Both the position numbers and the translations under genes were made by a program. A DNA stretch of 64,000 bases from Isurus oxyrinchus (taxonomy: Eukaryota), in contig JANJGN010000005.1 in NCBI GenBank assembly GCA_026770705.1, positions 44,082,001 through 44,146,000 of the forward strand, given 5' to 3'. Of this stretch, positions 445-31,400 are shown piece by piece. Position 1 is the first letter of the stretch, and the number at the start of each line of letters is the position of its first letter. The notes beneath the pieces were generated by a model. It worked only from the letters and a program-made list of their open reading frames with translations. It did no database searches and had not been told where the DNA came from.

Positions 445-1010
445 GGTGAGCAGGACTTTTTGGATGGTGGGGGTTTCTCACTCTGCCACCTGAAGGGTTG
501 GTGAGGAATGCAACCTTGCCGATCACAGCAGCCTCAGAGCCATTTAACAGAGCACTTTAATTGACTGGAGGTGGGACTTCCATCCATCACTCAAACTGAT
601 TGGCTGGCAGCTCTGTAGTCCCAGCACTGCCAGTGACAGCAGTGCAGCGGGCAAAACTGTGACTACAGTAGTTGCCAGAAGTCCTGGGGCAGAATTTTAC
701 AATACCCCACCAGCAGGTTTGTGGGTTGGGGGGGGGAGGCTCTGTAAAGTTCCCCAAGTGGTCTTCCCACCATCCACCCACCCAACCCCAATTTGTCTCC
801 AATTTTAGGTAGGGTGGGCAAAGCATAGAGTGGCCCACCTGCCCTCACCCCAATTGAGGCCCTTAAATCACCAAAATTGGTCACTTCCCACCCTGTTCTC
901 AATTTTAAGGCTGGCAGGAGGAGCTCAGGGGCTGTGGGGAAGCCCAGAAGGTCACTCTGTTCCCTGCTCTGGCCTTAGGTGTGAAGTAAGGGATTGCCTC
1001 ACTGAAGGGC
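445..1010. mobile_element. Degraded Harbinger-type MITE fragments
   Basis: Internal segment 590-670 is the reverse complement of part of the 19693-20390 MITE; TIR-like GGGCAGAATTTTACA at about 687. Confidence 0.5.
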
Positions 1011-1108
1011 CTCATTTCCACATTGTTCAATAATTGGATGCTGGACATCCATGTTGTGAATGTAAATCAGTACAAATGAGGCTGAGAATTGAGCATATTT
1101 TTAAAAGC

Positions 1109-1475
1109 TTATTTACTCTTTCACGGAATGTGGGCATTACTGGCAAGGCCAACATTTGTTGCCCATCCCTAATTGCTCTTGAACTAAGTGGCTTACTAAG
1201 CCATTTCAGAGGCAACCATATTACTGTGGATCTGGAATCACATGCAGGCCAGACCAGGTAAGGATGGTAGATTTTTTTCCCTAAAGCGCATTAGTGGTCC
1301 AGGTGGGTTTTTATAAAAATCTATGATATCTACTGCGATAGTTTTCAATTCCAGCCTTTCTTAATTGAATTTAAATCCCATCAACTACTATGGTGGGATT
1401 TGAACCCATGACCCCAGTTCATTTAGCTAGGTCTCTGGATTACTAATTCTGTGATACTACCACTATGCCACCGTC
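1109..1475 (-). mobile_element. HE1-like tRNA-derived SINE
   Basis: tRNA-like head (B-box GGTTCAAATCC on the minus strand), central domain and a 3' tail shared with the HER1 LINE; several copies in the window. Confidence 0.85.
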
Positions 1476-1809
1476 ATTATTATACATGTGACATTATTAT
1501 ACTACTACTCTTCCTGTGCATGCATCTGCCCAAAAATGGAAGAGCACTTCTGACAGCCACTGGAAGTAACAGCATAAAATGGGTAGGCACATGCAAATGA
1601 GGTAGCAATAACACTGTATTGTCTGAAACCTATTTCCCACCGCTATTTGCCTGATTCCTGTTACAAAATCCGGCCTTCATTCACTAAGTGTGTACATGAA
1701 AAATTATCATTTTATGGGAGGCATTGAAGGGCATTCAGTGTCCATGGAATGCTACACAAGCAAGGATCTAAGCCTTCATTTCTTAAGCTAATTTAACAAC
1801 GATCAAAAA

Positions 1810-2100
1810 TAGATCATAAATCTGTCTAACTCAGCTGTGAATATATTCAATGAGCTAGTCTCCACTGCAATCTAGGGAAAAGAATGCCAAAGATTAACGA
1901 CCCTCAGAAAAGAAATCCTCCTCAATACTGTCTTAAATGGGAGACCCCTTATCTTTAAACTGTGCTCCCTAGTTCTCGATTCCCCATGAGGGATAACATC
2001 CTCTTGGCATCAGAATCCTACATGTTTCAATAAGATCACCTCTCATTCTTCTAAACTCCAATGAGTATAGGTCCAACCTGCTCAATGTTTCCTCAGTGGC
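1810..2100 (-). mobile_element. CR1 LINE 3' fragment
   Basis: Reverse complement encodes the CR1 C-terminal LEFRRMRGDLIET-like motif plus 3' UTR. Confidence 0.75.
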
Positions 2101-2376
2101 CAACTATTGATAAATTTCCCCCATCTGCTGGTCCTTTATTTTTTTTCTCTTCTCCTTTCATTTTTGGTGATATCCTGCTCTGTGAGTTTACATTTCTCAA
2201 TGTAAGAAAGAATGACGCATATGAAGAGATTGGCAAAACTATTTAAAATTGGTCCAAGATGCTTCAGAATCAGCAGCAGCTCAGTTGAACAATCCAACAG
2301 ATCTCGAACTGAACATGGCAGGCATATTCAAGTGACAAGCAGTATTCCTGCCACAATAAGTTACTGCCTCACCTAC

Positions 2377-2545
2377 CTTTATCAGGATTTTTTTCTTCAG
2401 TTGACTGGGCGATGGGAGTTCATCTGCATTGATGTCTACAGGTTTGGTCAGCAGCATGTCCCCAAAGACCTTCTTGAAATGAGATGCCATGTTTCGCTGC
2501 TGCACAACACTGCAATGGTCTTCAATAGAGAGGATTATCGGATAC
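2377..2545 (-). CDS. PLCG1: PLC-gamma exon 13-equivalent (169 bp): [56 protein letters not shown], end of X-box
   Basis: Within ORF 2281..2664; matches human [20 protein letters not shown]...LPSPNQLKRKILIK; ccttgtag acceptor, AAG|gtagg donor. Confidence 0.96.
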
Positions 2546-2699
2546 CTACAAGGTACACACTTAAAATCAGTACTACCCTGTATAATTTTGGCTGTTGTTG
2601 CAGTTCCCATACTCATCTTGATAAATATGAATGGATTACTTAAATATTTGTGATGCAGACACATTATTAAGAAAAAAATACAGATAGAGTTTATTGTCA

Positions 2700-3050
2700 G
2701 CTGGGCTCAGTGGTGACACTCTTGTCTCTGATATCAAAGATTGGCGATTCCAGCCCCACTCCAGGACTTAGGCACATAATCATTACTTTGGTGCAGCACT
2801 GGGAACATGCTAATTTGTCATAGCTCCAGAGGAACAAAGTGTTCTGTTGGTGCCCTGGTCATCATTTATCCCTCAACCAACATCACCAAAGAAAGATTAG
2901 CTGGTTATTGATTTCTTTTGCTATTTGATGGACCTTGCTGTGCACAAATGGGCTGTCATAGTTATTTACATCATAGCTTCAAAATGGATTCATTAATTAA
3001 GTACTTGGATGGCCCAAGGATGTGAGGGCAGCTATATAAATGCATTTATT
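2700..3050 (+). mobile_element. SacSINE1/DeuSINE-like SINE
   Basis: tRNA-like head (ggctcagtgg...gattccagccccactccagga), Deu-like core (atttatccctcaaccaacatcacc) and L2-type tail (gctatataaatgca). Confidence 0.7.
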
Positions 3051-3369
3051 TTATTTTGAGTTATCCTTTAGCTTGTGCAGTTAGTTAATAATATAATGTC
3101 ACCTGTGGGGAGCTCTCACAACAGTTGCACTGCCTAAAATTCTATCTGGTCTCACTTTACTGACAGAAATGGAGGTGTGGGCGTGGGGGCATTGGTGGTG
3201 GTGGAGATAAGGGAAAAAGAGACTTGCTCTTTGTTTGTGCCCCTGACCCTGGCACACTTAAATACTTTGGATCAGAATGATGCCATTTAATGCATAGCTG
3301 AGGTGCCCACTTCATGTAAGATGGGGACACTTGCTACAGAGACTTACTTGGAGCAGACTGACCAGCTAC

Positions 3370-3785
3370 ATAGGATAATATAGAATATATGGCACAGAAA
3401 TAGGCCATTCAGCTTAACATGCTGGTGTTTTAGCTCCTTTCTAGCCTCCTTCCATATTTTCTCATCTAAATCTACTGTCATAACCCTCTATTCCCTTCTC
3501 TCATATGTTTGTCTAGCTTCTCCTTAAGCCCATCAATATTATTCACTTCAACCAATACCAGTAGTAGCGAGTTCTACATTCTCAGAATTCCCTATTGGAT
3601 TCCCTTGTGGCTATCATATAATGATGGTCTCTAGTTATGCTGTTCTCCACAAGAGAAAACATGCTCTCTGTACGCAGTCTTTCAAAACCTTTCATAATTT
3701 TAAAGACCTATATTAGGTCACTCCTCAGCCTTCTTTTTTATCAAGAGAAAAGAGACCCAGCCTATCAGTCCTTTCCTGATAGATA
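3370..3785 (-). mobile_element. CR1 LINE 3' fragment
   Basis: Same 3' motif set as other CR1 copies (RRLRSDLIxVFKIMKGFER on the minus strand). Confidence 0.7.
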
Positions 3786-14938: not shown

Positions 14939-15040
14939 CTCATCCAGTTGTAAAACAGGGTCTGATATCTCCCGCAAGGGGTCTTTAAAGTAATTAAAGA
15001 TGCACTCCCGGACTTTGTTGGTGTCATTTGCCCAGCTTTC
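14939..15040 (-). CDS. PLCG1: PLC-gamma exon 9-equivalent (102 bp): ESWANDTNKVRECIFNYFKDPLREISDPVLQLDE
   Basis: Similar to human ELWAVDRLQVQEFMLSFLRDPLREIEEPYFFLDE; ttattttcttag acceptor, GAG|gtatat donor. Confidence 0.92.
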
Positions 15041-18345: not shown

Positions 18346-19069
18346 ATTGTTTGGTATGAGGCCAAGGTTCACCTGGCTGTCAGCAGAAGTTGGGGCATGA
18401 CCTGGGAAAAGCAAGTATTGGAGAGTTAATTGGATAGAGTTCAAATTTACCTTACTACAAACAAAGGGTTTTAGTTAAGAACATAAAAAAAAGGATGAAA
18501 CTAGAAAATAGCCTCCAGGTCATCAAATATGCTCCTCCCACAGATTCCATGCAATCTACTCTATAATCAACTCTACTTCTAATGTGCTTCTCAAAAATTG
18601 TCTGACTTCTAGAGTTCCTGTAGCTTTTCTATCAATCTTATGGCTGACAGGGAGGTGAACCTCCATGGGAATTCACCTCACGCAACTTTTTCTCCAGGAA
18701 AATTCATCAGCTCCACAGGGCCTCCTTTAGTAGGTCAATGCTCTCTGTTTCAAAAGATCCTTGTCTTTCTCCTCAGAATGTCTCTGATGCACCAATGTCT
18801 CTCCGAACATTGACTACCCAAAAGTGTAGGAAAGACTTCAAATGTAATCAGGCAAGAGATTTTGCAAAGCTGGCTTGGTATGATTTACAATCAATGCTGA
18901 TTTGTTGCCTCAGTAAAAGAAAGACTTGAAAACACTGCATTTGTAGAGTGCCCCTCAGGGCACCAGAACACCCCAAACCACTTTTACAGCCAATTAAGTG
19001 CTTTTGAAGTGTGATCACTGTTGTAATGTAGGAAAGATTCACTTTGGCTTATTGATTCAGCCTGCCTAC

Positions 19070-19142
19070 CTTCTGATCATATTGCAGAAACTTCTGGAAG
19101 TCATACAGCGTAACTTGACACAGCTCAGGCCTCTCCACATTC
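19070..19142 (-). CDS. PLCG1: PLC-gamma exon 8-equivalent (73 bp): (R)NVERPELCQVTLYDFQKFLQYDQK
   Basis: Matches human ERPELCRVSLPEFQQFLLDYQG; cag acceptor, AAG|gtagg donor. Confidence 0.93.
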
Positions 19143-19692
19143 CTGCATGCAACAAAATAATATTTAAATAATGGCCGGAAGTAGCAGAATTTTTCATTAT
19201 AGACATAATTATTTGATGTGCTTAGGATCTGTAAACAAATCGACAAGTGGTTTTAGTGGAAGTGCCATGAGCGTTGCTGCAGGTTAATGCACCAGTTGTG
19301 AGACCTGGGACTGAGTTCTATATTTTACCATCAGCATATGCTGTGTTAATGCACTTTACTTTAAATAGACTTGTGGAGTTGGGCACATAATCTGAACTGA
19401 TACTTCTCATATAACTAAACAACAGTTGTACCTCAAAATGACCAGAGAATCATAGAATGATAGAGCACAGAAGCAGCATTATCGTTCCTGTGTCTTTGTT
19501 ACCGATAGACTGGACTATTCCCATTGCTCTTGGCTGGCCTCCCATGTTCTACTCCAAATAAACTTGAGGTCATCCAAAATATGTTGCCTATGTCTCAACA
19601 CACACCAAATCCTGCTCACCCACATCCCTGTTCTCTCCAACGTACATTTGTTTCTAGTTAAGCAACGCCTCGATTTTAAAATTCTCATCCTT

Positions 19693-20390
19693 GGGCTGCA
19701 TTTTACAGCTCCCTGCCAGTGTGTTTTAAGGTGGAGAGCTCATAAAATGCAATGCATGGCCTGCCCATAGTCTTCCTGCCCATTCCGACTTGTCTCCCAT
19801 TTTACGATGGATAGTGGTCACTTAAGTGCCTTATCTTGCCCCTGCTGCTATTTAATCCGCAGAAGTGAGGCCTATGCCAAGCTGGTAGCCTGGTAACTTT
19901 TACTGGGTGAGCTGGTGTCGGGAAAGTGGGTGGATGGGTATCTCCTGTGCCCAATCGATGAGGTCCCAATGTCATATATAGGTCATATCCACCCTTTAAC
20001 CCTTCCGTCCTGGCCTCTCAAACCCAGCCCCTCCACTCCCTTCAACACCACCCCCCCCTCACTGGGGTCTGCTTGCCAAGTCCCCCGCTCATACCCTGGA
20101 CTTAACAGAAGGCCAGCCTCCATAACCTCCTCTTCTTTTGGAACTGGCTGTAGTCCCAGGAATGGCCAATGCTTGGACCTGGCTCTGCTGAGACTGTGGA
20201 GCTGTTGGCCAATCCAATTGGTCTCTATGGTGGGTGCTTCCTTCCTAGAAGGGGGCAGAGGTCTTGCCCTGAGCCAGTTAACGCCACGCATAAAATGGCT
20301 GCGGGGCAGCTGGCTTTTTGGTGGGCGGGCTCCCTACTGACTTTTATTTAGGGGGAGGTGGGGACTACAGCACCCTGTAAAACCCAGTCC
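19693..20390. mobile_element. 698-bp Harbinger-type MITE inserted into an L2 3' region
   Basis: Imperfect 16-bp TIRs GGGCTGCATTTTACAG / CTGTAAAACCCAGTCC; 3-bp TSD CTT; removing the element restores L2 sequence attctcatccttgttttcaaatcc. Confidence 0.85.
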
Positions 20391-20739
20391 CTTGTTTTCA
20401 AATCCTTTCATGGCCTTCCAGTTCTACAACTGAGATTCCTGCGCTCATCTAATTCTGGCATCTTGCACATCACCAATTTAAAGTGCTGCACCTTTGGTGG
20501 CTGTGCCTTCAGTTGCTAAGTTCCAAAGCTTTGGAATTCCCTCCCTAAACCATTTCACCTTTCTACCTCTTTTCTCCTTTAAGTGACTCCTTAAAAAACT
20601 TACTTCCTTGACAAAGCTTTAGATGTATCTTTCCTAATATCTCCTTACATCGTTCGGTGTCAAGATTTTGTTTGATAATCCTCATGTGACGTGTCTTGGC
20701 GGTTATGATGACACCAAAGGTGCTATAGAAATACATGCA

Positions 20740-21400
20740 GTTGTTTTTGGTCTTGCTGGATCTTTGGTAAAGCTATCCAATTAATCCTATTCTTTCCCCA
20801 TGGCCCTGTAAATATATTTCCTTCAAGTATTTATTCAATACTCTTTAGATATTGTTATTAAATTTGTTTCCAGCACCATTCCAGGCAGTGCATTGCAGAT
20901 CACAACAACCTGCTGTGTAAAAAAATGTTTTCTCATGATGCCTTCAGTTCCTTTGCTTCTGGTCACTGACCCTTCTGTCACTACAAATAGTTTCTCCTTT
21001 TTTCCCCTCTATTTATTCATTTGCACCCTCTCCAAAACCTTGACATCCTTCCTAAAATGTGATGTCAAAATTAAGCACAATACTCTAGCTGAGGTCTAAC
21101 CAGTGTTTTAGAAAGGTTCAGCATAACATCCTTACTTGTGTACTCTATGCCTCTGTTAATAAAGATCTTATGTACTTTATGGCTTTTTCAGCAGCCTTCT
21201 CAACTTGTCCCGCTATTTTCAAAGATTTGTGTACATGCACTCCCAGGCTGCTCTGTTCCAACATCCCCTTTAAAACTGTACAATTTATTTCATATTCCCT
21301 TTCCTCATTCTTCCTATCAAAATATGTCACTCCACACTTCTCTGTTTAATGTCACTTCCATGTATCTGCCGATTTCACTAGTCTGCCTGAGTTCCCCTGA
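20740..21400 (-). mobile_element. CR1 LINE fragment
   Basis: Degraded RT C-terminus (LGVHVHKSLKIAGQVEKA). Confidence 0.7.
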
Positions 21401-21529
21401 TGTCTGTTACCAATGCCATGGTCTTTAATTTTGCTAACAAGTAATACCAACAATTACAAATACTGGCAAAGAACATCGGCTGAAGAGCCATTTCAACTTT
21501 GGGAAAGAAATAACTCACATTTGTATAGA

Positions 21530-21700
21530 AACAAAATACTGCGGTGCTGGAAATCTGAAATAAAAAAAGATAATGGTAGAAAAAGTCAGCAGGTCTGACA
21601 GCCGAAGAAGAGTCATATTGGACTCGAAGTATTAACTCAATTTCTCTCTCCACAGATTCTTCCCAACCTGCTCAGTTTTTCCAGCATTGTCTGTTTTTAT
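21530..21700. repeat. Penelope-terminus-derived palindromic element
   Basis: aaaagtcagcaggtctgaca...ccgaagaagagtcatattggactcgaa...cctgctcagtttttccagcatt; same family as 33545-33995 and 57950-58126. Confidence 0.65.
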
Positions 21701-21929
21701 TTTGCATTTATATAGCCCCTTTCATGATTTGAGATATTGCAAAATGTTTTACAGTCTTCGAAGTGTAATCACAATTGTAATGTAGAAAACGCTGCAATAG
21801 CAATGAGATAATCTATTTCAGTGATGTTAGGGATAAGTCTTGTCTGAGACGCCAGGGAGAACTTACCTGCTCTTCTATCAAATACTGTTGTGGGATCTGT
21901 TATATCAATCTAGGAAATGCAAATATTGC

Positions 21930-22620
21930 TGAAAAGAGAGACACTTTGCCGAAGCTTTTCATCTTACACTCATCAGGACACACAAAAGAATGCTAAATTT
22001 CAAACACTCAAGACACTTTATGCTACAGGAGACAAAGGGTGCTGATTGGCTGATAAATCGACTCTGATTGGCCAAGGCATTGCCATGCAGAAAACAAAGA
22101 GGAACAAAAGGTTCCTCAAGCTCCCCAGTAATTCAAAAAGGGCTCAAGGCTTGAACATTTTCCTTTTGTTTGAAAAAAACAGGCCCCTGCATATGAATGT
22201 ATGTTGCTCCTAGCAAGCATTAATGAGTCACAGTGTGAGCTTGACCGATTATCTTAAATTGGCTGATAGTGTAGATATTAGCACACTTAGGATTGTTCAG
22301 CAAGTGCTGCCTAATGATGGAATCATATTTAACAGTATACATTTTGTTTTGGGTTTTGCAAGCACGGACTGGTTGAACATGGTCTGTACTCTGCTTATTA
22401 CAAACAACTGAAGGAATATGCTGTTTGATTTGATCAGCCAATCACTGGGATGTACTGCCTACGTACCTGGTATCACATCGGCGCTGAAATTCATACACAC
22501 TCAATTGTGTGGTTGGCAGAACATTTTTTGGATTGACAGCAGCATTCTGTTAGTGGTAAATACCACTTGTGTAGCCACTGCATTGTAGCAGCGTGAAACG
22601 GCTTACTTAACCTGTTTCAG
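21930..22620 (-). mobile_element. Penelope-like retroelement 3' part: GIY-YIG endonuclease remnant plus terminal region
   Basis: Minus-strand translation YEFQRRCDTRYVGSTSQ*LADQIKQH...IIRQHLLNNPKCA...FKIIGQ...LLGATYI, a typical PLE GIY-YIG domain. Confidence 0.85.
21947..21980 (-). ncRNA. Minimal type-I hammerhead ribozyme motif (Penelope-associated)
   Basis: Minus strand UGUC-CUGAUGA-GUGUAAGAU-GAAA-AGCU-UC-GGCA: intact core, 4-bp stem I, palindromic AAGCUU stem III. Confidence 0.7.
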
Positions 22621-22748
22621 CCGGGATACATTCCCCATCGTGGCGGGGCAGAAAACCTTGGGAAAATTCAGCCTATTATATTAGGTCATCAACTTTAACT
22701 GTCCCCTTATATTCTTTAGCAGATTAACCGAAAATACTAGAAGCCCGG

Positions 22749-23003
22749 TGTTGTAGGGTGGCCAAGTTGTGCTATTAATGATAGAGCTCATCTGAAGACA
22801 CTTCTTGGGTGGAAATTTTAAGTTTATTTACAATATACTAAGCAACAACTACATGTGTGCTTTCAACTCAAACTCCATCTCTATACTGACTCCTGAGGTA
22901 GCTCGAGCTACTATCCTATTGGTAACTACAGGTCATGTGATTTTGCCCAACAACTATTATTCTTAAAGTACATTGCACACTAAATAAAACCATAATTATT
23001 ACA
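22749..23003 (-). mobile_element. 3' LTR (255 bp) of the Gypsy element
   Basis: Minus strand TGTAAT...CTACAACA (TG...CA), preceded directly by polypurine tract agttaaggagggaggaa; contains AATAAA (22823-22828). Confidence 0.8.
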
Positions 23004-25092
23004 TTCCTCCCTCCTTAACTCGGCTAAACATATTATATTTACAAGTACATATTTTTCAAGACAACATTACATTTACACTGTGTAAGGAATTCACAAGTTC
23101 AGTCTTTCAGGTAGTTTCCTGGTACACTTGGACTGTCTCAGCTCCACAACTTCAGATTCTTTGTCAGAAATCTCCTTTTCCAGAGTTGCCTGAACATCAG
23201 TGCTTCAGTGGGCACTTACAGATCTGTTTCCTCAACTCTTACAGGAACATCATACATGTCAGTCTTGGGTTGACGATTCTCAACAAGAAATGCAGACCAG
23301 ACATGATCACTGGTGGAAACATATCTTGATGATTTGTCTCCCTTTTCCTTAAATGGTCCTCATGTTTATGGATGATCCAGCCTTCCACCTATCATATGGT
23401 AAGATAGAGGTCCAGTCACTGCACTTATTTTACCCGGTAACCACTTTGGTACTTCGCCAAAGTTTTTCACATATACTGGCTCACCCACGGTAAATTTTCT
23501 CTCACAATTATGCCAGTCGTGTCTAGTTTTTTTGGCTTCCCTGACTCCTTTCCACCTTCCCCTCCAAACTGAGCATTATTAAGCTCAATCTCACTCTGAA
23601 ATGGCATTTCAGCAAAAGCTCTGCAAGTGTGACACCTGCTGTTGTGTGAGGGGTAGCCCTGCAGTGAAAAAGATAGCAACCTAGCTTGGTTGCCAAGGAA
23701 TCACCAATTAACTTTCTCTTACCTGTCTTGAATGTTTGAACCGCCCTTTTGGCCAGTCCATTTGAGGAAGGGTGGTAAAGTGCAGCTTTCACATGAGTGA
23801 TACCGTTGAGGCTGATAAACCGTTGAAACTCAGTACTTGTAAATGCTGTGCCGTTATCGGAAACGACTTCTGGTAGTCCCTGAATGGCAAAACTCTGAAG
23901 TAGTTTCTCAATTGTTGCTGCTGACATTGGTGAATTCACCTCATATATGTCCAACCATTTTGAATGGACATCGACAATGAGCAGAAACATTGTTCCCGGG
24001 AAAGGTCCGACGTAGTCAATGTGTAACCACACCCAGGGTCTACCTCCAGGGTCTACCTGGCCACTCCCATTGGTAGCTGTCACTGGCAACTTTTGCAGTT
24101 GCTGACATTGCACACAGTGCTTTACTAAACCCTCTATTTCACCATCCATTCCAGGCCATCATAGAGAGCTGTGTGCTATGGTCTTCATTTGAGAAATTCT
24201 TGGATGGACACTGTGTAGTTCAATTAAAAGCAGTTCTCTTCCCTTTGGAGGAACTATCACTCATGCTCTCCACAATTAGATGGCATCCTGGCTGGTTATT
24301 TCAAGTCTTCTGTTGAAGTACGGTCTCATTTAGTCAGATACAGGCTCCTGTAACCTTGTAGCACTTGTTTCCATACCTGAGATAGGACTGGGTCCTGACT
24401 TGTCCAGTCTCTGATCTGTTGAGCATGTACCAGCGAGGAATTTAAGAAATTGAACAGTAAAACAAGTTCCTGTGGAACTGGGACATGCTCATTATTTTCT
24501 TGTAAAGGCAAACGACTAAGGGCATCAGCGTTTGCGATTTGATTGTCCGGCCTATGTATGAAATTGTATTCGTATGCTGCCAGAATTAAGGTTCATCATT
24601 GTATTCTTGCTGAGGCTATGGGGGGGTATAGCCTTGTCCTCACTAAACAATCCTAGCAATGGTTTGTGGTCTGAAATGATTGTAAAATGACGACCGTGTA
24701 AGGGCTGATGAAATTTCTTGACACCAAAGGTGATGGACAGGCTTTCTTTATCTTTCTGCGAGTATTCCTTTTCTGCTGTGGTGAGCGTTCTTGATGTCTA
24801 ACCTATTGGCCATTCCATGCCGTCATCCATCTGATGAGAGAGTGCTGCTCCCACTCCATAGGGAGATGCATCACATGTCAGCACCAATTCTTTCATCTGG
24901 TCGTAATGCACTAATAGATTGGATGAGCTCAACAATTGCTTCATTTTTATGAAAGCTTCTTTCTACATGCCTTCTTCTTTCTAGCGCAGACTTTAATCTT
25001 GGCCTGCTTTTTGACTTCACTGTTGGCCATATTTCTCTCAGATGCAGCTCAACTTGTCTGAGCTCAGTGGCTGAGTCTCCCAAAATTTCATT

Positions 25093-25775
25093 GGCCAGAA
25101 TCTTCAGGTTGGTGAGTGGGGGCGGGCCCCGTTCACTGACGCATAAAATGAAGCTCAGCAACATCAGGCGCGCGTCCCGATGTCACCGCGCATCATTCCG
25201 ATATTCAGTTCGGCAGGGGCGCACTGGAGTCGGCTTCATGCCCACCAAACTGTCAAAGGCCTATTAAGGCCATTTAAATACCAACTAAAATACTTAACTG
25301 AGCTGCCTGTCTAACCTTAACGTTTGCAGGCAGGCGAAGAGCCCAGGTGGCCTTCGCATTTATCATGAAACCTCATCCATGGGATGATGAGGTTTCATGA
25401 AGGTTTTTAAAGTTAATAATATTTTTTAATAAAAGTCATTGACATGTCCCAGCTCATGTGACACTGTCAAATGAGGGGACATGTCTTAAAATTTTTTTTC
25501 TTCTTTATTAAATTTTTTAGAAATCAGACTAATTTCCCTAAGGCAGCTCTATGCCTCGGAGATTTCTGCACTCTTTCGTGCGCAAGCACAAAAGAGCGCA
25601 GTTCCGACTCAGCCCATTCCTGCACAGGGAGCTCTCATCACGCTGGGTGGGCCTTAATTGGCTCGCTCACATAAAATGGCAGTGCACAGCCAATCATGGG
25701 CAGCGATGGGCTGCACACCTGCCCGTGCCTGTCCAACCAACGCACCCCCCCACCCCCCGATGGGGAGAAAATTCC
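25093..25775. mobile_element. ~680-bp Harbinger-type MITE nested in the Gypsy element
   Basis: Starts ggccagaatctt, ends ggggagaaaattcc; internal hairpin gaaacctcatc...gatgaggtttc; reverse-orientation relative of 47951-48641. Confidence 0.8.
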
Positions 25776-27365
25776 TTTGGCTTCATTTAGCTGATTCTTC
25801 AGCTCTTCTGTCTCTTTTTTGTATTTGTTTACTGCCTCTTTGAAAATTGAACATTGTTGTGTCTTTGCTCCCAACTCATTCTTCAGTTTGTTCAGAGAGG
25901 TGCTGAATTCTTTCTGTTTCTCTTCAAAATTTTCCAACAGTACAAACTTTGACCTGAAGGAATCTTGCAGTGTGTGAAGGTCTTTCAACAGATTTTCTTT
26001 TTCCCGGCAAAGGTTGCTCACCCTGTCTCGAACTCTGTCATCTAGCAGGGTCTCTTCGAGTTCCTTCTGCTGTTCTTCCAGGTTTTGGCTTAAGACAATC
26101 TGTATTTCTTCAGGTTGTTGAGTCCTTACACACTCCTTTTTCAAAACAGGAACACTTCCAGCTTCCTTTTGGAGTCTCAGTGGCCAATCAAGGTTGATTT
26201 CCCTGAGCCAATTTCACCCTAGAAGGCTTGGTCCTCTGCCTCTCAATATTAACACTGACAGCGTTGCCGATTGGCTTCCATAATGGACAGTTACTCTGCT
26301 TATGCCTTTTACTTGAATGGCTTCACCTGTATATGTTTTTAGCTTGGCATCTGTTTCTCCTAAACTTAATTGATGTTCATCATTATTCAAATATCTGAAG
26401 GAATGTTCCCAATTACTATGGTGGAAGCTCCCGTGTCCACTTCTGTTCTAACAGGTTTGCCATTTACTTTCACTGTGACAAATATTGGTTCTACCTTTCC
26501 AACAATGATTAAACAATGAGTAAATGCCTGAATTTGTTGTTTCAGGCTCTTCTATGTTATAGATTTCATTGGTCTTCTTTTATTTACAAGCCTGATTGAA
26601 CCTTTCCTTGCATTGCCTCGTCATATGTCCATGTCAATAGTAGCATTCGATTTTTTTAAACTGCAAATCACTAAAAGGTTGATTGTTTCCACCTCTATTA
26701 AAAATATTCTTTGATTTCGCTACTAAGTTATTTTTCTTTATTCTTTGACTAGCGGGGCCTGTTTCCAGCTTCTCGGCAGTTTCACTCTTTCATGCCTCCT
26801 TTGGCTGAGGTTTTCTGCCCAACGTGGAGGACGGTGCCATTTTGCCTTGTGTTGCTTTTGAATCTCTTACTGCGCTTTACATGGGCCAGTGCTATATCTA
26901 GCACCTTCTTGAAATTTAGATTCACTTCAGACAATAATCTTTTCTGAATAGAGTCCTCTTTCATTGCACACACTAAACAATCTCTGAGCATGTCGTTCAG
27001 AGTCGTACCAAACTCGTTCATAGTCGTTCCATTAGCTGCTTCAATTTGCCACATAGCATGTAATTGTCTCACCCGGGGCTCTATTTCGTGAATTAAACCT
27101 GAACCTCTGCATCGTGACTGAGGGCTTTGGTTGAAAATTACTCCTCGCGAGGTCCAGCAATTCATGGAAGTTCTTCAAATCTGGGACACAGTGCCGTCAA
27201 ACTTTGAATCAGACTGTAGGTTTTTCACCTACAAGTACTCAAGAGGATCGCTTGCCTTTTCTCTTCCTTGTAACCTCGTTCGCTTGAAAAAGGATCAATT
27301 CTCCCAAACTGTGGCATTTTGAGAGGGGATAATTTCTTCAATTCTAACGGAGCTTGCCACTTATA

Positions 27366-27488
27366 GGGCTGAACTTTCCCCCCATCGGTGGGGGGGGGTT
27401 GTGCGGGGGCCGGCAGGAGCGAGTGCGAACCCGATCGGCACCCCCAGTCGGGTGCGCGCCACCATTTTACGTGGGCAGGCCCATTAAG
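27366..27488. mobile_element. Truncated copy of the same MITE family at the 5' edge of gag
   Basis: gggctgaactttcccccatcggtggggggg matches the reverse complement of the 25740-25775 terminus. Confidence 0.7.
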
Positions 27489-27860
27489 ATTTGCAGCTCT
27501 CTTGGTTATCAGTCTGAAGTGGGTGTGGTTTCAGATTGTAATAGTTCTTTAAAGGTATGAAAGGCTAACTGGTTTCCTTCTGTGCTGAGCACATCCAGAT
27601 TCTACTGTTCTGAAAGCCCTGGATCATCAGCATTGACAATTCACATAACGTGTTGCACAAAGCAATTAACAAATTCAATGAATCAAAATGATGAAGTTGT
27701 CCAGACCAAAATTAATTTTATTTTTTATCTGAAAAGAGCTAGGAATTAGTCTGTCTGAGGATGATTATGTCAAAAGTTCACTTTAAAGTAGAGGAAAGGC
27801 AAGGGTCAAAGCTATAAAAAGACATTCAGAATCCAGTCCAATCAAAGAGAAACTTCTTAC

Positions 27861-27895
27861 CTCAAAGGGAAAGATAGCTCCAGCTGCTCAATTAT
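27861..27895 (-). CDS. PLCG1: PLC-gamma exon 7-equivalent (35 bp): IIEQLELSFPL(R)
   Basis: Acceptor tttttctgtgtgtag, donor AG|gtaag; the 35-nt length restores the frame between exons 6 and 8. Confidence 0.85.
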
Positions 27896-28207
27896 CTACA
27901 CACAGAAAAACAGAGGTTGTATAAACAGAGTAACCAACACTTAGGAAAGAGTTACATGTTGAATCTAATTGAGAGATTCACATGGTTTATTTATAGAGCA
28001 TTGACTGACTGGGTGTGGCTACAAGAACAGTGTAATTGATGGGGTCAGGTGCTTCTGTGTGGAAATAATGGATAGCCAGGAGTGACCTAGAGGATATAAA
28101 CCAAGTGAAAGGGGCCAGATGATGTTTTTTTAATTCATAAGCCCAACCCACCTTAAGAATATAGGAACATAGGAACAGGAGATCCTCCATCCGTTTATAT
28201 TATGAAG

Positions 28208-28545: not shown

Positions 28546-28626
28546 CGATTTCTGTGCATCAAACAACAGGTTTCTGTAGAAAAGAATGAACTGCGCATAG
28601 TTCATATCCACCCTTGTGTCCACTTC
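28546..28626 (-). CDS. PLCG1: PLC-gamma exon 6-equivalent (81 bp): EVDTRVDMNYAQFILFYRNLLFDAQKS (EF-hand region)
   Basis: Similar to human DLEQRSGDITYGQFAQLYRSLMYSAQKT; cag acceptor, TCG|gtgag donor; phase 0/0 fits both neighbours. Confidence 0.9.
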
Positions 28627-29089
28627 CTGTCAGAAGGATGAATAAAGCACAGGTACAATTAATCCACACCCTCTGTCACACTCATCGGCAGAGGCATCTT
28701 TGTGCTTAATATTGAAAAGTACTGAACGACACTTGGTTCATCCAGTCTGCCTGCCCCTTTTCTACATGCTAAGTGCAAGTTGCCCTGCCATGTATCCTTC
28801 CAATTTATTAAATCTTCTATGAATAAAACTTTGATAAAGATTTTGCTGATCCCAGGGTTTATGCAGCAAACATTCTAGCATATCAGTGTAGCATTATAAT
28901 CCACATTATTGATCTGCAAGCAATTATGTTCTACACATGATATTCCCAAAATCCCAACTGGGCTAAGCCTATGGTGTTCCAGTGAATTTGATCTCTGCTT
29001 AGATGTGTTCTGATAACCTTCAGTCTCTTTGAGCTAACCTTTACAACAAAGAAATTAATCAACATTATCATAGCTTTAGGGCAGAATTA

Positions 29090-29625
29090 TTATGGTTTTA
29101 GCACAATGTTAACACAATATTAATTGCATTTTAGCAACAGCATCAATACTGTATTAACTTAGATTCAGCATATCATTAGGACAGTATTAACACAGCATTA
29201 ACACAGTACTGATAAGATAGTAGCACATCATTACCACAACATTAGTACTATTTTAGTACAGCATTAACACAATATAAAAACAGCACTTTAAATACTAAAT
29301 GGTATTAGCACACTTTCAGCACAGTATCAAGCAGTAATCCAGCATTTTATTTTTTTTATCTATCACAGGATGTGAGCATCACTGGCTAGGGCAGCATTTG
29401 TTATCCACCCCTAATCGACACTGTTTTAGTACAGTAGTCACATGGCATTAACAAAACATTAGCACAGTATGTAAATGCAGCACCAAAGTATAACTCACGT
29501 ATAAAGACAGTATTTGTAAAGTATCTGCGCTTTATTAACGGTCTAAGCATATTAGCACAAGAGTAACTCAAAATTAGCACACTATAAATGCAGTATCAGC
29601 ACGGCATTAACACTGTGTTAACTAA
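29090..29625. repeat. Degenerate AT-rich ~11-bp satellite (ttaacacagca/ttagcacagta) with an HE1 tail fragment at ~29345-29417
   Basis: Many ttagcaca/ttaacaca units. Confidence 0.7.
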
Positions 29626-29629
29626 ATAT

Positions 29630-31400
29630 ATCCATCCATCCATTCATTTTCACATCGCTTCTCCTGGTGAGTTTCACAGTGGCAGTAAGTTGAGCAGGGC
29701 TGACCAGACCTTCCTCAGCCACAGATTCCAGCTCCCCCTGGGGGATCCCCAGGTGTTCCCAGACCAGCCAAGACATGTAATCCCTCCAGTATGTCCTGGG
29801 TCAGCCTTGAGGTCTCCGCCCAGTGGGCCATGCTCGATACTGCTTCAGTGGGAGCCTAATATGGGGCATCATTATCAGGTACCTCAACTGGCCCCTCTCG
29901 ATCCGGAGGAGCAGCAACTCTACTCTGAGGGTCTCCTGGATTGCTGAACTCCTCACCCTGTCCCAGAGAGTACGCCCAGCAACCCTGCAGAGAAACCTCA
30001 TTTCTGTCACTTGTACTCTCAATCTTATATTTTCGGTCAATACCAACAGTTCATGACCATAGGTGAGGATGGGGACCTGGATCGACCGGTAAACAGAGAG
30101 CTTCATCCTAAAACTCAGCCCTTAGCTTCACCTCCACAGACCAGTACAGTGTCCACAGAACTGCAGCCGCCGCATTGATCCACTGGTCAATCTCAGCTCC
30201 CTCACTCGTGAACAAAATCCCAAGATACTTGAACTCCTCCACTAAGAAAAGCAGTCCCCCCTCACCTGGAGAGATCAATCCACTCTGTTCCAGGAGAGAC
30301 CATGACCTCAGATTTAGAGGTGCTGATCCGCATCACAGCCATGTCACACCTGGCAGCAAAACGAGTGTGCGCTGGAGACCACAGTCGGATGAGGCAAGAA
30401 GCACAACATCATCTGCAAACAGCAAAGATGCCACCCTCAAGCCCCGAAATTGAATATTCTCAGTACTTCGACTCTGCCTTGATATCCTGTCCATGAAAAT
30501 CATGAACAGGAGTGGAGACAAGACGCAGAGTCTAACACCCACCTTGAACAAAATCGACTTAATGCCGAGAATGCGGACACAACTCTCGCTCCGCGAACAG
30601 AGGGACCTGATAGCACACATGAGTGACACCATTGCCTCATATTCCCGCAGCACCTCCCATAAAATATCTCGAGGAACGTTTTTGTATGCCTTCTCCTGGT
30701 CTACAAAACAGAGGTAAACTGGATTAGCCAATTCCCACGAGCCCTCAAATATCTGTGAGAGGGCAAAGAGCTGGTCCACTGTTCCACAGCCATGGTGGAA
30801 TCTGGATTCTTTCTCCTGAATCTGGGGTTCGACTAATGGACAAAGTCTCCTCTCCAGCACTCTGGCATAGGCTTTCCCCGGGGAAGCTGAAGAGTGTGAT
30901 CCCTCTATTATTGGAACACACCCTCTGGTCCCCTTTCTTTAAGATTGAATCACCACCCCAGTTTGCCAATCCAGCGATACTGTCCCCGCCTTCCATGAAA
31001 TGTTGAAGAGGCACGTTAACCATGACACCCCAGCATTGTCCAGCACCTTCAACATCTCCAGGCGAATCTCTTCCATTCCTGCTGCCTTACCGCTACGGAG
31101 GCCCTTGATCACTGTAGTGACCTCAGCAACAGTAACAATTCCAGTCTCATTGGAAGGTTCTGGCACTGCCTCCTGGACATGTCTACCAGGTTGAGGAGTT
31201 CCTCAAAGCGTTCCTTTCACCTCTTGGCGATCTCCCCAGTTGTGGTCGGTGTTTCCCCACCCTTGCTGAGAACAGCTTGGGCGACATCCCACTGACCCCT
31301 CCTAAGGCGCCAAATGGTTTGTCAGAACAACGTTGATACCGTCTGATAGTCACTCTCAATGGCCTCTCCAAACTCCCCCCAAGCTCAAGCCTTCACTTCA
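29630..31400 (-). mobile_element. RTE-clade LINE of Rex3/Expander type
   Basis: RVASLLFADDVVLLASS, KLSVYRSIQVPILTYGHE, GKAAGMEEIRLEMLK; 3' (GATG)n tail at 29631-29645. Confidence 0.85.

Follow-up and report, generated by a model that had tools for sequence, protein, structure and literature searches.

How can a long terminal repeat (LTR) retrotransposon multiply once the core of its reverse transcriptase (RT) has been replaced by a foreign coding sequence? The question is raised by a decayed Gypsy element (∼27363 to 22749, minus strand) in a window of 64,000 nucleotides (nt) from the shark Isurus oxyrinchus (contig JANJGN010000005.1, positions 44,082,001 to 44,146,000 of assembly GCA_026770705.1), whose order is gag, protease, insert, RT connection, RNase H, integrase, and 3′ LTR. 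It belongs, as a dead copy, to a Gypsy family that lacks RT (family A): in place of the RT core, and in frame with the protease upstream, stands a coding piece of the host's UACA gene. Taken together, the data make it likely, with a fair margin of doubt, that family A acquired this cargo second-hand, that it depended on an RT-bearing helper family (family R) onto whose backbones the cassette was re-grafted, and that selection at the level of the element acted on the Gag-protease-helix fusion.

A Host Coding Sequence in Place of the RT Core

A preliminary description of the locus had reported that the protease reads in frame into a stop-free stretch rich in E, K, Q, and L, and this stretch spans 137 codons (26186-25776, minus strand). 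It follows a frameshifted aspartic protease core with its DTG motif present (26281..26480, from translations) and a protease C-terminus with linker (26139..26280), which has travelled with the insert and diverged from family R (net divergence of 0.07-0.28 vs 0.00-0.01 further upstream). Homology to the host starts near 26140, the ∼50 nt before it being diverged Gypsy linker, and the 5′ switch point lies near 26139. The stop that had been noted ahead of the insert is present (26216-26214), but it marks a decay hot spot found in 57% of the family copies aligned there.

A protein search matched the insert to shark UACA-like proteins (46% over 117 aa, E 8e-22). The host UACA gene lies on contig 25 (C25), with the relevant exon at C25:4.88 Mb, and the insert consists of two parts of this one 2.7-kb exon at ∼70% nt identity. 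The first UACA segment (25804..26138) corresponds to residues ∼907-1023 of the shark UACA-like protein. It is joined at a host microhomology, GCTGAAGAA (25795..25803; internal deletion of C25:4883047 to 4883489), to a second segment that starts at host position C25:4883489 (25776..25794) and, beyond a nested repeat, ends at C25:4883600 (25057..25092). There follows a linker (24965..25056) homologous to the 92-nt one between UACA and ninein in an older LTR family (family B, below), after which Gypsy sequence resumes through a 9-nt microhomology between linker and RT connection, AGAAAGAAG (24956..24964), a 3′ switch point of the third of three classes that is also found in copies L086 and L087. 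The resumption had been placed correctly, at the RT connection and RNase H and in another frame; this decayed region (24552..24955) lies outside the fusion frame and is recognized by Pfam (RT_RNaseH, E 1.9e-14).

The RT core is missing from the window copy, as had been observed, Pfam searches recognizing RNase H and integrase after the RT connection, and the proposal that it was swapped for foreign coding sequence is borne out, with UACA as the host origin. Within Pfam the insert itself gave only sub-threshold coiled-coil matches. A diverged RT, which the preliminary description had named as an alternative, was rejected for lack of any RT match in Pfam and because of the clear UACA homology. 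The insert also continues past the nested repeat, where ∼40 further codons had been described, but the ending quoted for it (...LHLRE) is off frame through a one-base frameshift near 25045. Two further arguments fell away. The absence of introns had been offered as evidence of capture and is uninformative, since the UACA piece lies inside a single exon. The stop-free insert had been contrasted with decayed flanks, yet after insertion the insert carries 0.0095 stops per codon against 0.006-0.016 in gag and pol regions; the stop-free state of the window copy is no evidence of selection, which comes instead from the stem of the family. The notion of a captured host fragment stands as regards its coding origin, and a partial host coding sequence between LTR-element parts, the mark of an LTR-mediated retrocopy, is found in family A; the host mRNA itself is not the probable donor, the cargo of another LTR family being likelier.

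Copy Number and Parent Family

The chimera is not a one-off junction, the other alternative raised at the outset. A 25-nt motif across the junction of family A gave 1,276 matches in the genome (at least 1,276 copies) and the control none, while the corresponding RT-bearing motif of family R gave 1,318 matches and the control 2; the ratio of about one to one is rough, as the two motifs differ. A DNA search with the insert returned 3,559 first-look candidates, and among 40 scored, 39 besides the window copy matched at 89-91%. The protease is joined to the same insert in all 29 other loci fetched, so that the predicted multi-copy, non-autonomous family sharing a Gag-protease-coiled-coil frame exists. 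Among 30 loci with a motif of RT domain 7, RT was present in 22 (family R) and the insert in 8 (family A). The family, including the protease-insert junction, was also seen in sequencing runs of two organisms, and a contig from the second covers the unique flank at 27460-28000.

Family R is the RT-bearing parent of family A, present in about as many copies. Both share one LTR, and other copies show LTR pairs and a primer site starting with TGG. The TG...CA termini, primer site, and polypurine tract are those of Ty3/Gypsy elements, and family R has the complete protease-RT-RNase H-integrase order. The YxDD core of RT is absent from family A, which is therefore not an autonomous Ty3/Gypsy element; its RT was likely supplied by family R. 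LTR-bounded A copies lie on many contigs, as expected of secondary retroposition. Most of their LTR pairs are 81-92% identical, and thus the burst is old.

A domesticated host gene was considered and rejected for family A: it is multi-copy, its copies decay almost neutrally once inserted (ratio of nonsynonymous to synonymous divergence, dN/dS, 0.93), and the window copy is broken and spliced out of a host transcript.

Source of the Insert

The most likely source of the cargo, judging from sequence comparison, is an older LTR family (family B) rather than the UACA gene. Family B elements are 4-5 kb long with a gag-like remnant (e.g., L076:2428-7472), and their backbone has no nucleotide homology to that of families A and R. 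They are represented by loci L063-L084, L141-L144, and L165-L194, gave 1,928 first-look candidates, of which 150 were scored, and include many nested deletions and some permuted cargo orders. The cargo comprises up to 1.55 kb of the UACA exon, the 92-nt linker, 271 nt of ninein (69% to shark ninein), and a piece of TPR. A first protein search with the TPR-like piece did not return TPR, and its identity was settled by a Pfam match above cut-off (PF25481) and by the host exons. Six consecutive TPR exons are joined in family B and five GT-AG introns are gone, which demonstrates capture from spliced RNA. A helical-looking stretch between the gag remnant and UACA (e.g., L076:3700-3875) is possibly another captured fragment.

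The probable derivation of the A cargo from family B is based on several comparisons. Both families leave UACA at the same base (C25:4883600) and continue into the same linker, the commonest A class (class 2) running as far as the linker/ninein join. No host source for the linker was found among its 30 best loci, all of which belong to family B. The internal UACA deletion of family A also occurs in 25 of 30 B loci (subfamily B2), these being loci fetched by linker similarity. States shared by A and B against the host number 22, compared with 7 that A and the host share against B. Finally, in a tree of the insert (73 rows, omitting copies under the coverage cut-off and five B loci with rearrangements or duplicates), family A is monophyletic (100/100), and its long stem joins the tree next to B2 copies.

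A third LTR family, family C (L132-L137; e.g., L092:769-1803), carries a different gag-protease in frame with three spliced TPR exons in the place of RT. At silent sites its TPR piece is nearer to that of family B than to the host, so this cargo, too, was probably passed on. In another shark, Cetorhinus maximus, residues 1-103 of a "CLCA1-like, low quality" database model (P0021) are a linker/ninein/TPR-like mosaic, which suggests the presence of family B there and an annotation artefact.

Probable Repeated Re-grafting onto Helper Backbones

Families A and R are hard to tell apart outside the cassette. Their net divergence is about zero, within noise, in gag, RT thumb, RNase H, and integrase; for the protease it is 0.025 dS. 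Measured in 30-nt steps it stays at 0.00-0.01 up to 140 nt before the junction and then climbs to 0.07, 0.11, 0.15, and 0.28, with poorer alignment in these last steps. Labels of the two families are unclustered on trees of gag and NC-protease (133 and 431 of 500 shuffles as low), where both occur inside a supported divergent subclade; the integrase tree is only weakly informative. Copies under coverage cut-offs were omitted from these comparisons. One RT-thumb codon was counted as a stop in every aligned A copy, at a site near an indel hot spot and against a single-copy reference.

The 3′ junctions fall into classes at the RNase H end (20/29), at RT domain 7 (9/29), and at the RT connection (the window copy and two more), and sit at A/G-rich microhomologies. 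At the window copy's own junctions the microsimilarity is 9 nt on the 3′ side and ∼4 nt, diverged, on the 5′ side. A backbone indistinguishable from family R save for the last ∼140 nt before the insert, together with three 3′ junctions, makes it likely that the cassette was re-grafted repeatedly onto R backbones. As a review describes (PMC6894440), reverse transcription allows defective LTR elements to recombine with autonomous ones packaged alongside them. An old cassette on a backbone identical to that of the contemporary helper would be expected from repeated recombination between co-packaged RNAs.

Probable Selection on the Fusion Protein

The modal frame of family A is open from the gag ATG through the protease and the insert, and closes within ∼20 linker codons in both main classes, with a basic tail at the end of the fusion. 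RNase H and integrase are out of this frame in 12 of 14 copies of one class and in 12 of 13 of the other. No insert codon is a stop in more than 28% of copies, no stop or frameshift is shared, and the sole indel shared relative to the host, in 32 copies, is in frame.

On the stem leading to family A we estimate dS at 0.48 and dN at 0.20, a ratio of 0.43 (0.26-0.68), compared with 0.93 among inserted copies. The estimate uses three-point distances over 151 codons with transition correction (Li93), and omits a sixth B locus and one near-duplicate A locus. The Nei-Gojobori ratios (0.25 vs 0.56) were set aside in favor of Li93, as transitions bias them in K/E/Q-rich sequence. In neutral simulations the first percentile of the ratio was 0.53-0.59 and only 1-7% of runs passed without a new stop. 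The host branch (0.14) equals the B tips (0.15), and the A stem evolved at five to eight times the rate of the host clock, which fits a replicating RNA and not a host gene. From these comparisons, selection appears to have maintained the UACA piece as a component of the protein that the element itself encodes.

Differences by codon position are 0.28/0.23/0.43, and Pro plus Gly number 4.2 against ∼12 in a model in which only stops are forbidden (P at most 0.002); that model fails on the codon-position pattern, the Pro+Gly count, and the charged fraction. The data support a soluble helical tail, without showing a dimer interface. A single-sequence fold of the protease end and insert was all helix at low confidence (pTM 0.29), and a two-copy complex prediction of the insert scored 0.30 against a mark of 0.32.

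Several points weigh against capture, re-grafting, and selection as set out above. Hydrophobic residues are not retained above chance (0.75 vs 0.70, P ∼0.22), which is weak for a dimer interface. The sample is only 151 codons, the interval of the ratio extends to 0.68, and part of the distance between family A and the host belongs to the host branch. The simulations ignore base-composition bias, which may explain part of the Pro/Gly and charge result. No intermediate lineage splits the long A stem, and the position of selection along it was not seen. The TPR stem of family C has no purifying signal (dN 0.068, dS 0.029). The internal UACA deletion sits on a microhomology and could recur. No intact or young A copy, and hence no direct sign of fusion expression, was seen among the copies examined, no dedicated search for one having been made; short contigs from putative RNA runs do cover the insert, without strand or start information. 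Lastly, an A copy (L160) and an R copy (L155) at C2:233.1 and 234.2 Mb of assembly G000, 1.1 Mb apart, share private changes in the RT thumb and integrase. Some A/R mosaicism therefore arose in the chromosome, by post-insertion recombination or duplication, and not in particles.

Proposed Mechanism and Alternatives

The sequence of events that we favor begins with family B, whose cargo of UACA, linker, ninein, and intron-free TPR shows that it captured at the RNA level. A template switch may then have carried B cargo, already deleted, into an R-lineage Gypsy element at the protease/RT boundary. The resulting RT-less chimera would have relied on R proteins and recombined repeatedly with R RNA, through 5′ crossovers in the protease and 3′ landings at A-rich microhomologies, such that the backbone was refreshed while the cassette aged. 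The statistical suppression of amino-acid changes on the A stem implies that the fusion was translated and mattered to the element.

A last step is speculative: the helix might replace RT as an oligomerizing part that activates the protease, or aid co-assembly with helper particles, and we would call either role doubtful. In HIV-1, RT is described as promoting Gag-Pol dimerization and protease activation (PMC11998509, in the part available), and the accessible text of a second study reports that a leucine zipper adjacent to the protease enhances its activation with lower particle yield (PMC5899837). A coiled coil in the place of RT could conceivably act in the same way, a parallel that we draw tentatively. 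Broader still, and for us equally short of probable, is a shark Gypsy cargo economy in which host coiled-coil pieces, after their capture, would circulate among unrelated LTR lineages, and selection on the elements would retain them as an RT-replacing C-terminal module of the protease. Such an economy, if true, would allow parasites without RT to assemble and mature particles for RNA of their own, with copy numbers equal to those of their helpers.

The foremost alternative, which we think improbable though well short of negligible, is that the insert is translatable filler: the element would need a long open frame behind the protease, be it for cis-packaging, spacing, or the stability of its RNA, which could be filled by any soluble sequence that is benign, coiled-coil exons recurring since they are long, purine-rich, and full of A-rich microhomologies. 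The unretained hydrophobic core, a stem dN that still reaches 0.20, A/G-rich microhomologies at all junctions, and the unconstrained family C agree with filler; the failure of the stops-forbidden model to reproduce either the third-position excess or the low Pro+Gly count, and a stem ratio below the neutral first percentile, do not. A softer version ("any soluble helix") overlaps with selection on the fusion as we propose it. Less probable again is mimicry, in which the insert would give cover from host silencing or a host-binding surface instead of a role in particle assembly. The copy number of family A, equal to that of its parent, and the basic tail in both main classes would suit such a function, but mimicry of small RNAs is unlikely to persist at 70% nt identity to UACA. 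Constraint imposed by the host is very unlikely. A B copy domesticated as a gene, selected, and recaptured as mRNA by the R lineage would yield a long stem with low dN/dS; the stem dS of 0.48 would nevertheless have to fit into a time worth ∼0.09 dS on the host clock, the neighboring end of the Gypsy protease diverged along with the insert, and no single-copy intact chimera was seen among 30 linker loci or 40 insert matches. Direct capture of UACA mRNA by the R lineage, which is consistent with the identity of the insert and with a deletion at a recurrable 9-nt microhomology, is largely refuted and barely credible, as it leaves unexplained the shared non-UACA linker (not seen as an alternative UACA exon in the host region compared), the common exit base, and the 22 vs 7 shared states.

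The Window Copy and Its Surroundings

The remainder of the window copy confirms that it is dead: the 5′ LTR is lost, gag and pol contain stops and frameshifts, and the 3′ part of the insert is frameshifted. The decayed gag (26481..27317, minus strand), with capsid region and zinc knuckle, was recognized from translations and other copies, and the element is truncated at ∼27363. Downstream of RNase H lie a decayed integrase of approximate limits (23100..24250, with an open core at 23523-24158; Pfam rve, E 9.6e-11, and Integrase_H2C2), a polypurine tract at the same position as in other copies (23004..23020), and a 255-nt 3′ LTR with TG...CA ends (22749..23003), ∼76-87% identical to both ends of other copies.

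The nested repeat that splits the insert (25093..25775) resembles a miniature inverted-repeat transposable element (MITE) with imperfect inverted ends. It had been located correctly and is private to the window copy, being absent from this site in 29 of 29 other loci, while relatives of it are present in 11 of 76 10-kb loci. It displaced 47 nt of the insert and has no clean target duplication.

The whole element lies, in sense orientation, inside an 8.7-kb intron (19142..27860, minus strand) of a host gene that is expressed; contigs from three of four putative RNA runs lack this intron, which is spliced out at CT..AC. Exons of the gene are at 14939-15039, 19069-19141, 27861-27895, and 28546-28627 (minus strand). 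Two of them weakly match phospholipase C gamma chains (E 0.63 and 0.01), the likely identity of the gene. A degenerate 11-nt tandem repeat, with a largest family of 16 copies, occupies 29069-29630 of the window. At one of the other loci (L158, C13:8815100-8825000 of G000), an open frame of 926 codons (913-3690 of the locus), bearing RT-like motifs and, at its C-terminus, nuclease-like ones, lies between 858-nt direct repeats that are 99.9% identical; we take this to resemble a young Penelope-type element.

Comparison with Known Systems

Host fragments captured by LTR elements are commonly regarded either as passengers or as a supply of material for new host genes. In this case a single genome preserves, as a fossil record, the donor gene, its first and second carriers, and the helper family. 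The cargo shows purifying selection inside an element unable to copy itself, which makes adaptive gene capture for a parasite testable, and this is a probable vertebrate case of a non-autonomous cassette surviving through re-grafting onto a helper. The finding is also of practical concern, because shark gene annotation can be led astray by UACA, ninein, and TPR fragments that number in the thousands, and one database model begins with such a mosaic. Our literature search, whose coverage left out most subscription journals, listed no paper on UACA, ninein, or TPR cargo in shark Gypsy elements.

A familiar parallel is offered by replication-defective transducing retroviruses with Gag-onc fusions, in which pol is replaced by spliced host sequence in frame with gag and replication depends on a helper. 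Family A differs in being a germ-line retrotransposon without env and with no sign of a signalling domain. The HIV-1 zipper system is an analogy only, being engineered and retroviral, with the zipper upstream of the protease and fewer particles (PMC5899837, available part).

Maize Bs1, an LTR element with pieces of three host genes partly in frame, is a close analogue of family B, which is likewise a multi-gene mosaic (UACA, ninein, and TPR), while family A carries UACA and linker. In the portions of the sources at hand, Bs1 is present in one to five copies and has been interpreted as a new host gene (PMC13317346, PMC5131818). Family A, unlike Bs1, is a high-copy parasite retaining gag, protease, RNase H, and integrase sequence. 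Autonomous and non-autonomous LTR partners similarly recombine during reverse transcription; in contrast to those treated in the accessible part of that work (PMC6894440), the persisting unit of family A is a host-derived coding cassette, and a gradient of divergence marks the crossover zone.

A close match is with LTR-mediated retrocopies. As far as the available text of Tan 2016 (PMC5131818) goes, these share with families A and B a fragment of host coding sequence flanked by discontinuous parts of an LTR element, microsimilarity at the switch points, multi-gene chimeras, and secondary non-autonomous retroposition; the removal of introns that also characterizes them is seen for TPR in the donor family B, the UACA piece of the window copy lying within one exon. 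The cases described in that text are of single or few loci, and its supplements may hold higher-copy ones, whereas family A exceeds 1,000 copies; it departs from them, too, in cargo that crosses between LTR families without backbone homology and in purifying selection on its own stem. The route of capture, LTR-mediated retroposition, is thus already known, and what family A adds to it is its scale, cargo that moved from one backbone to an unrelated one, a gradient of divergence, and selection on the stem.

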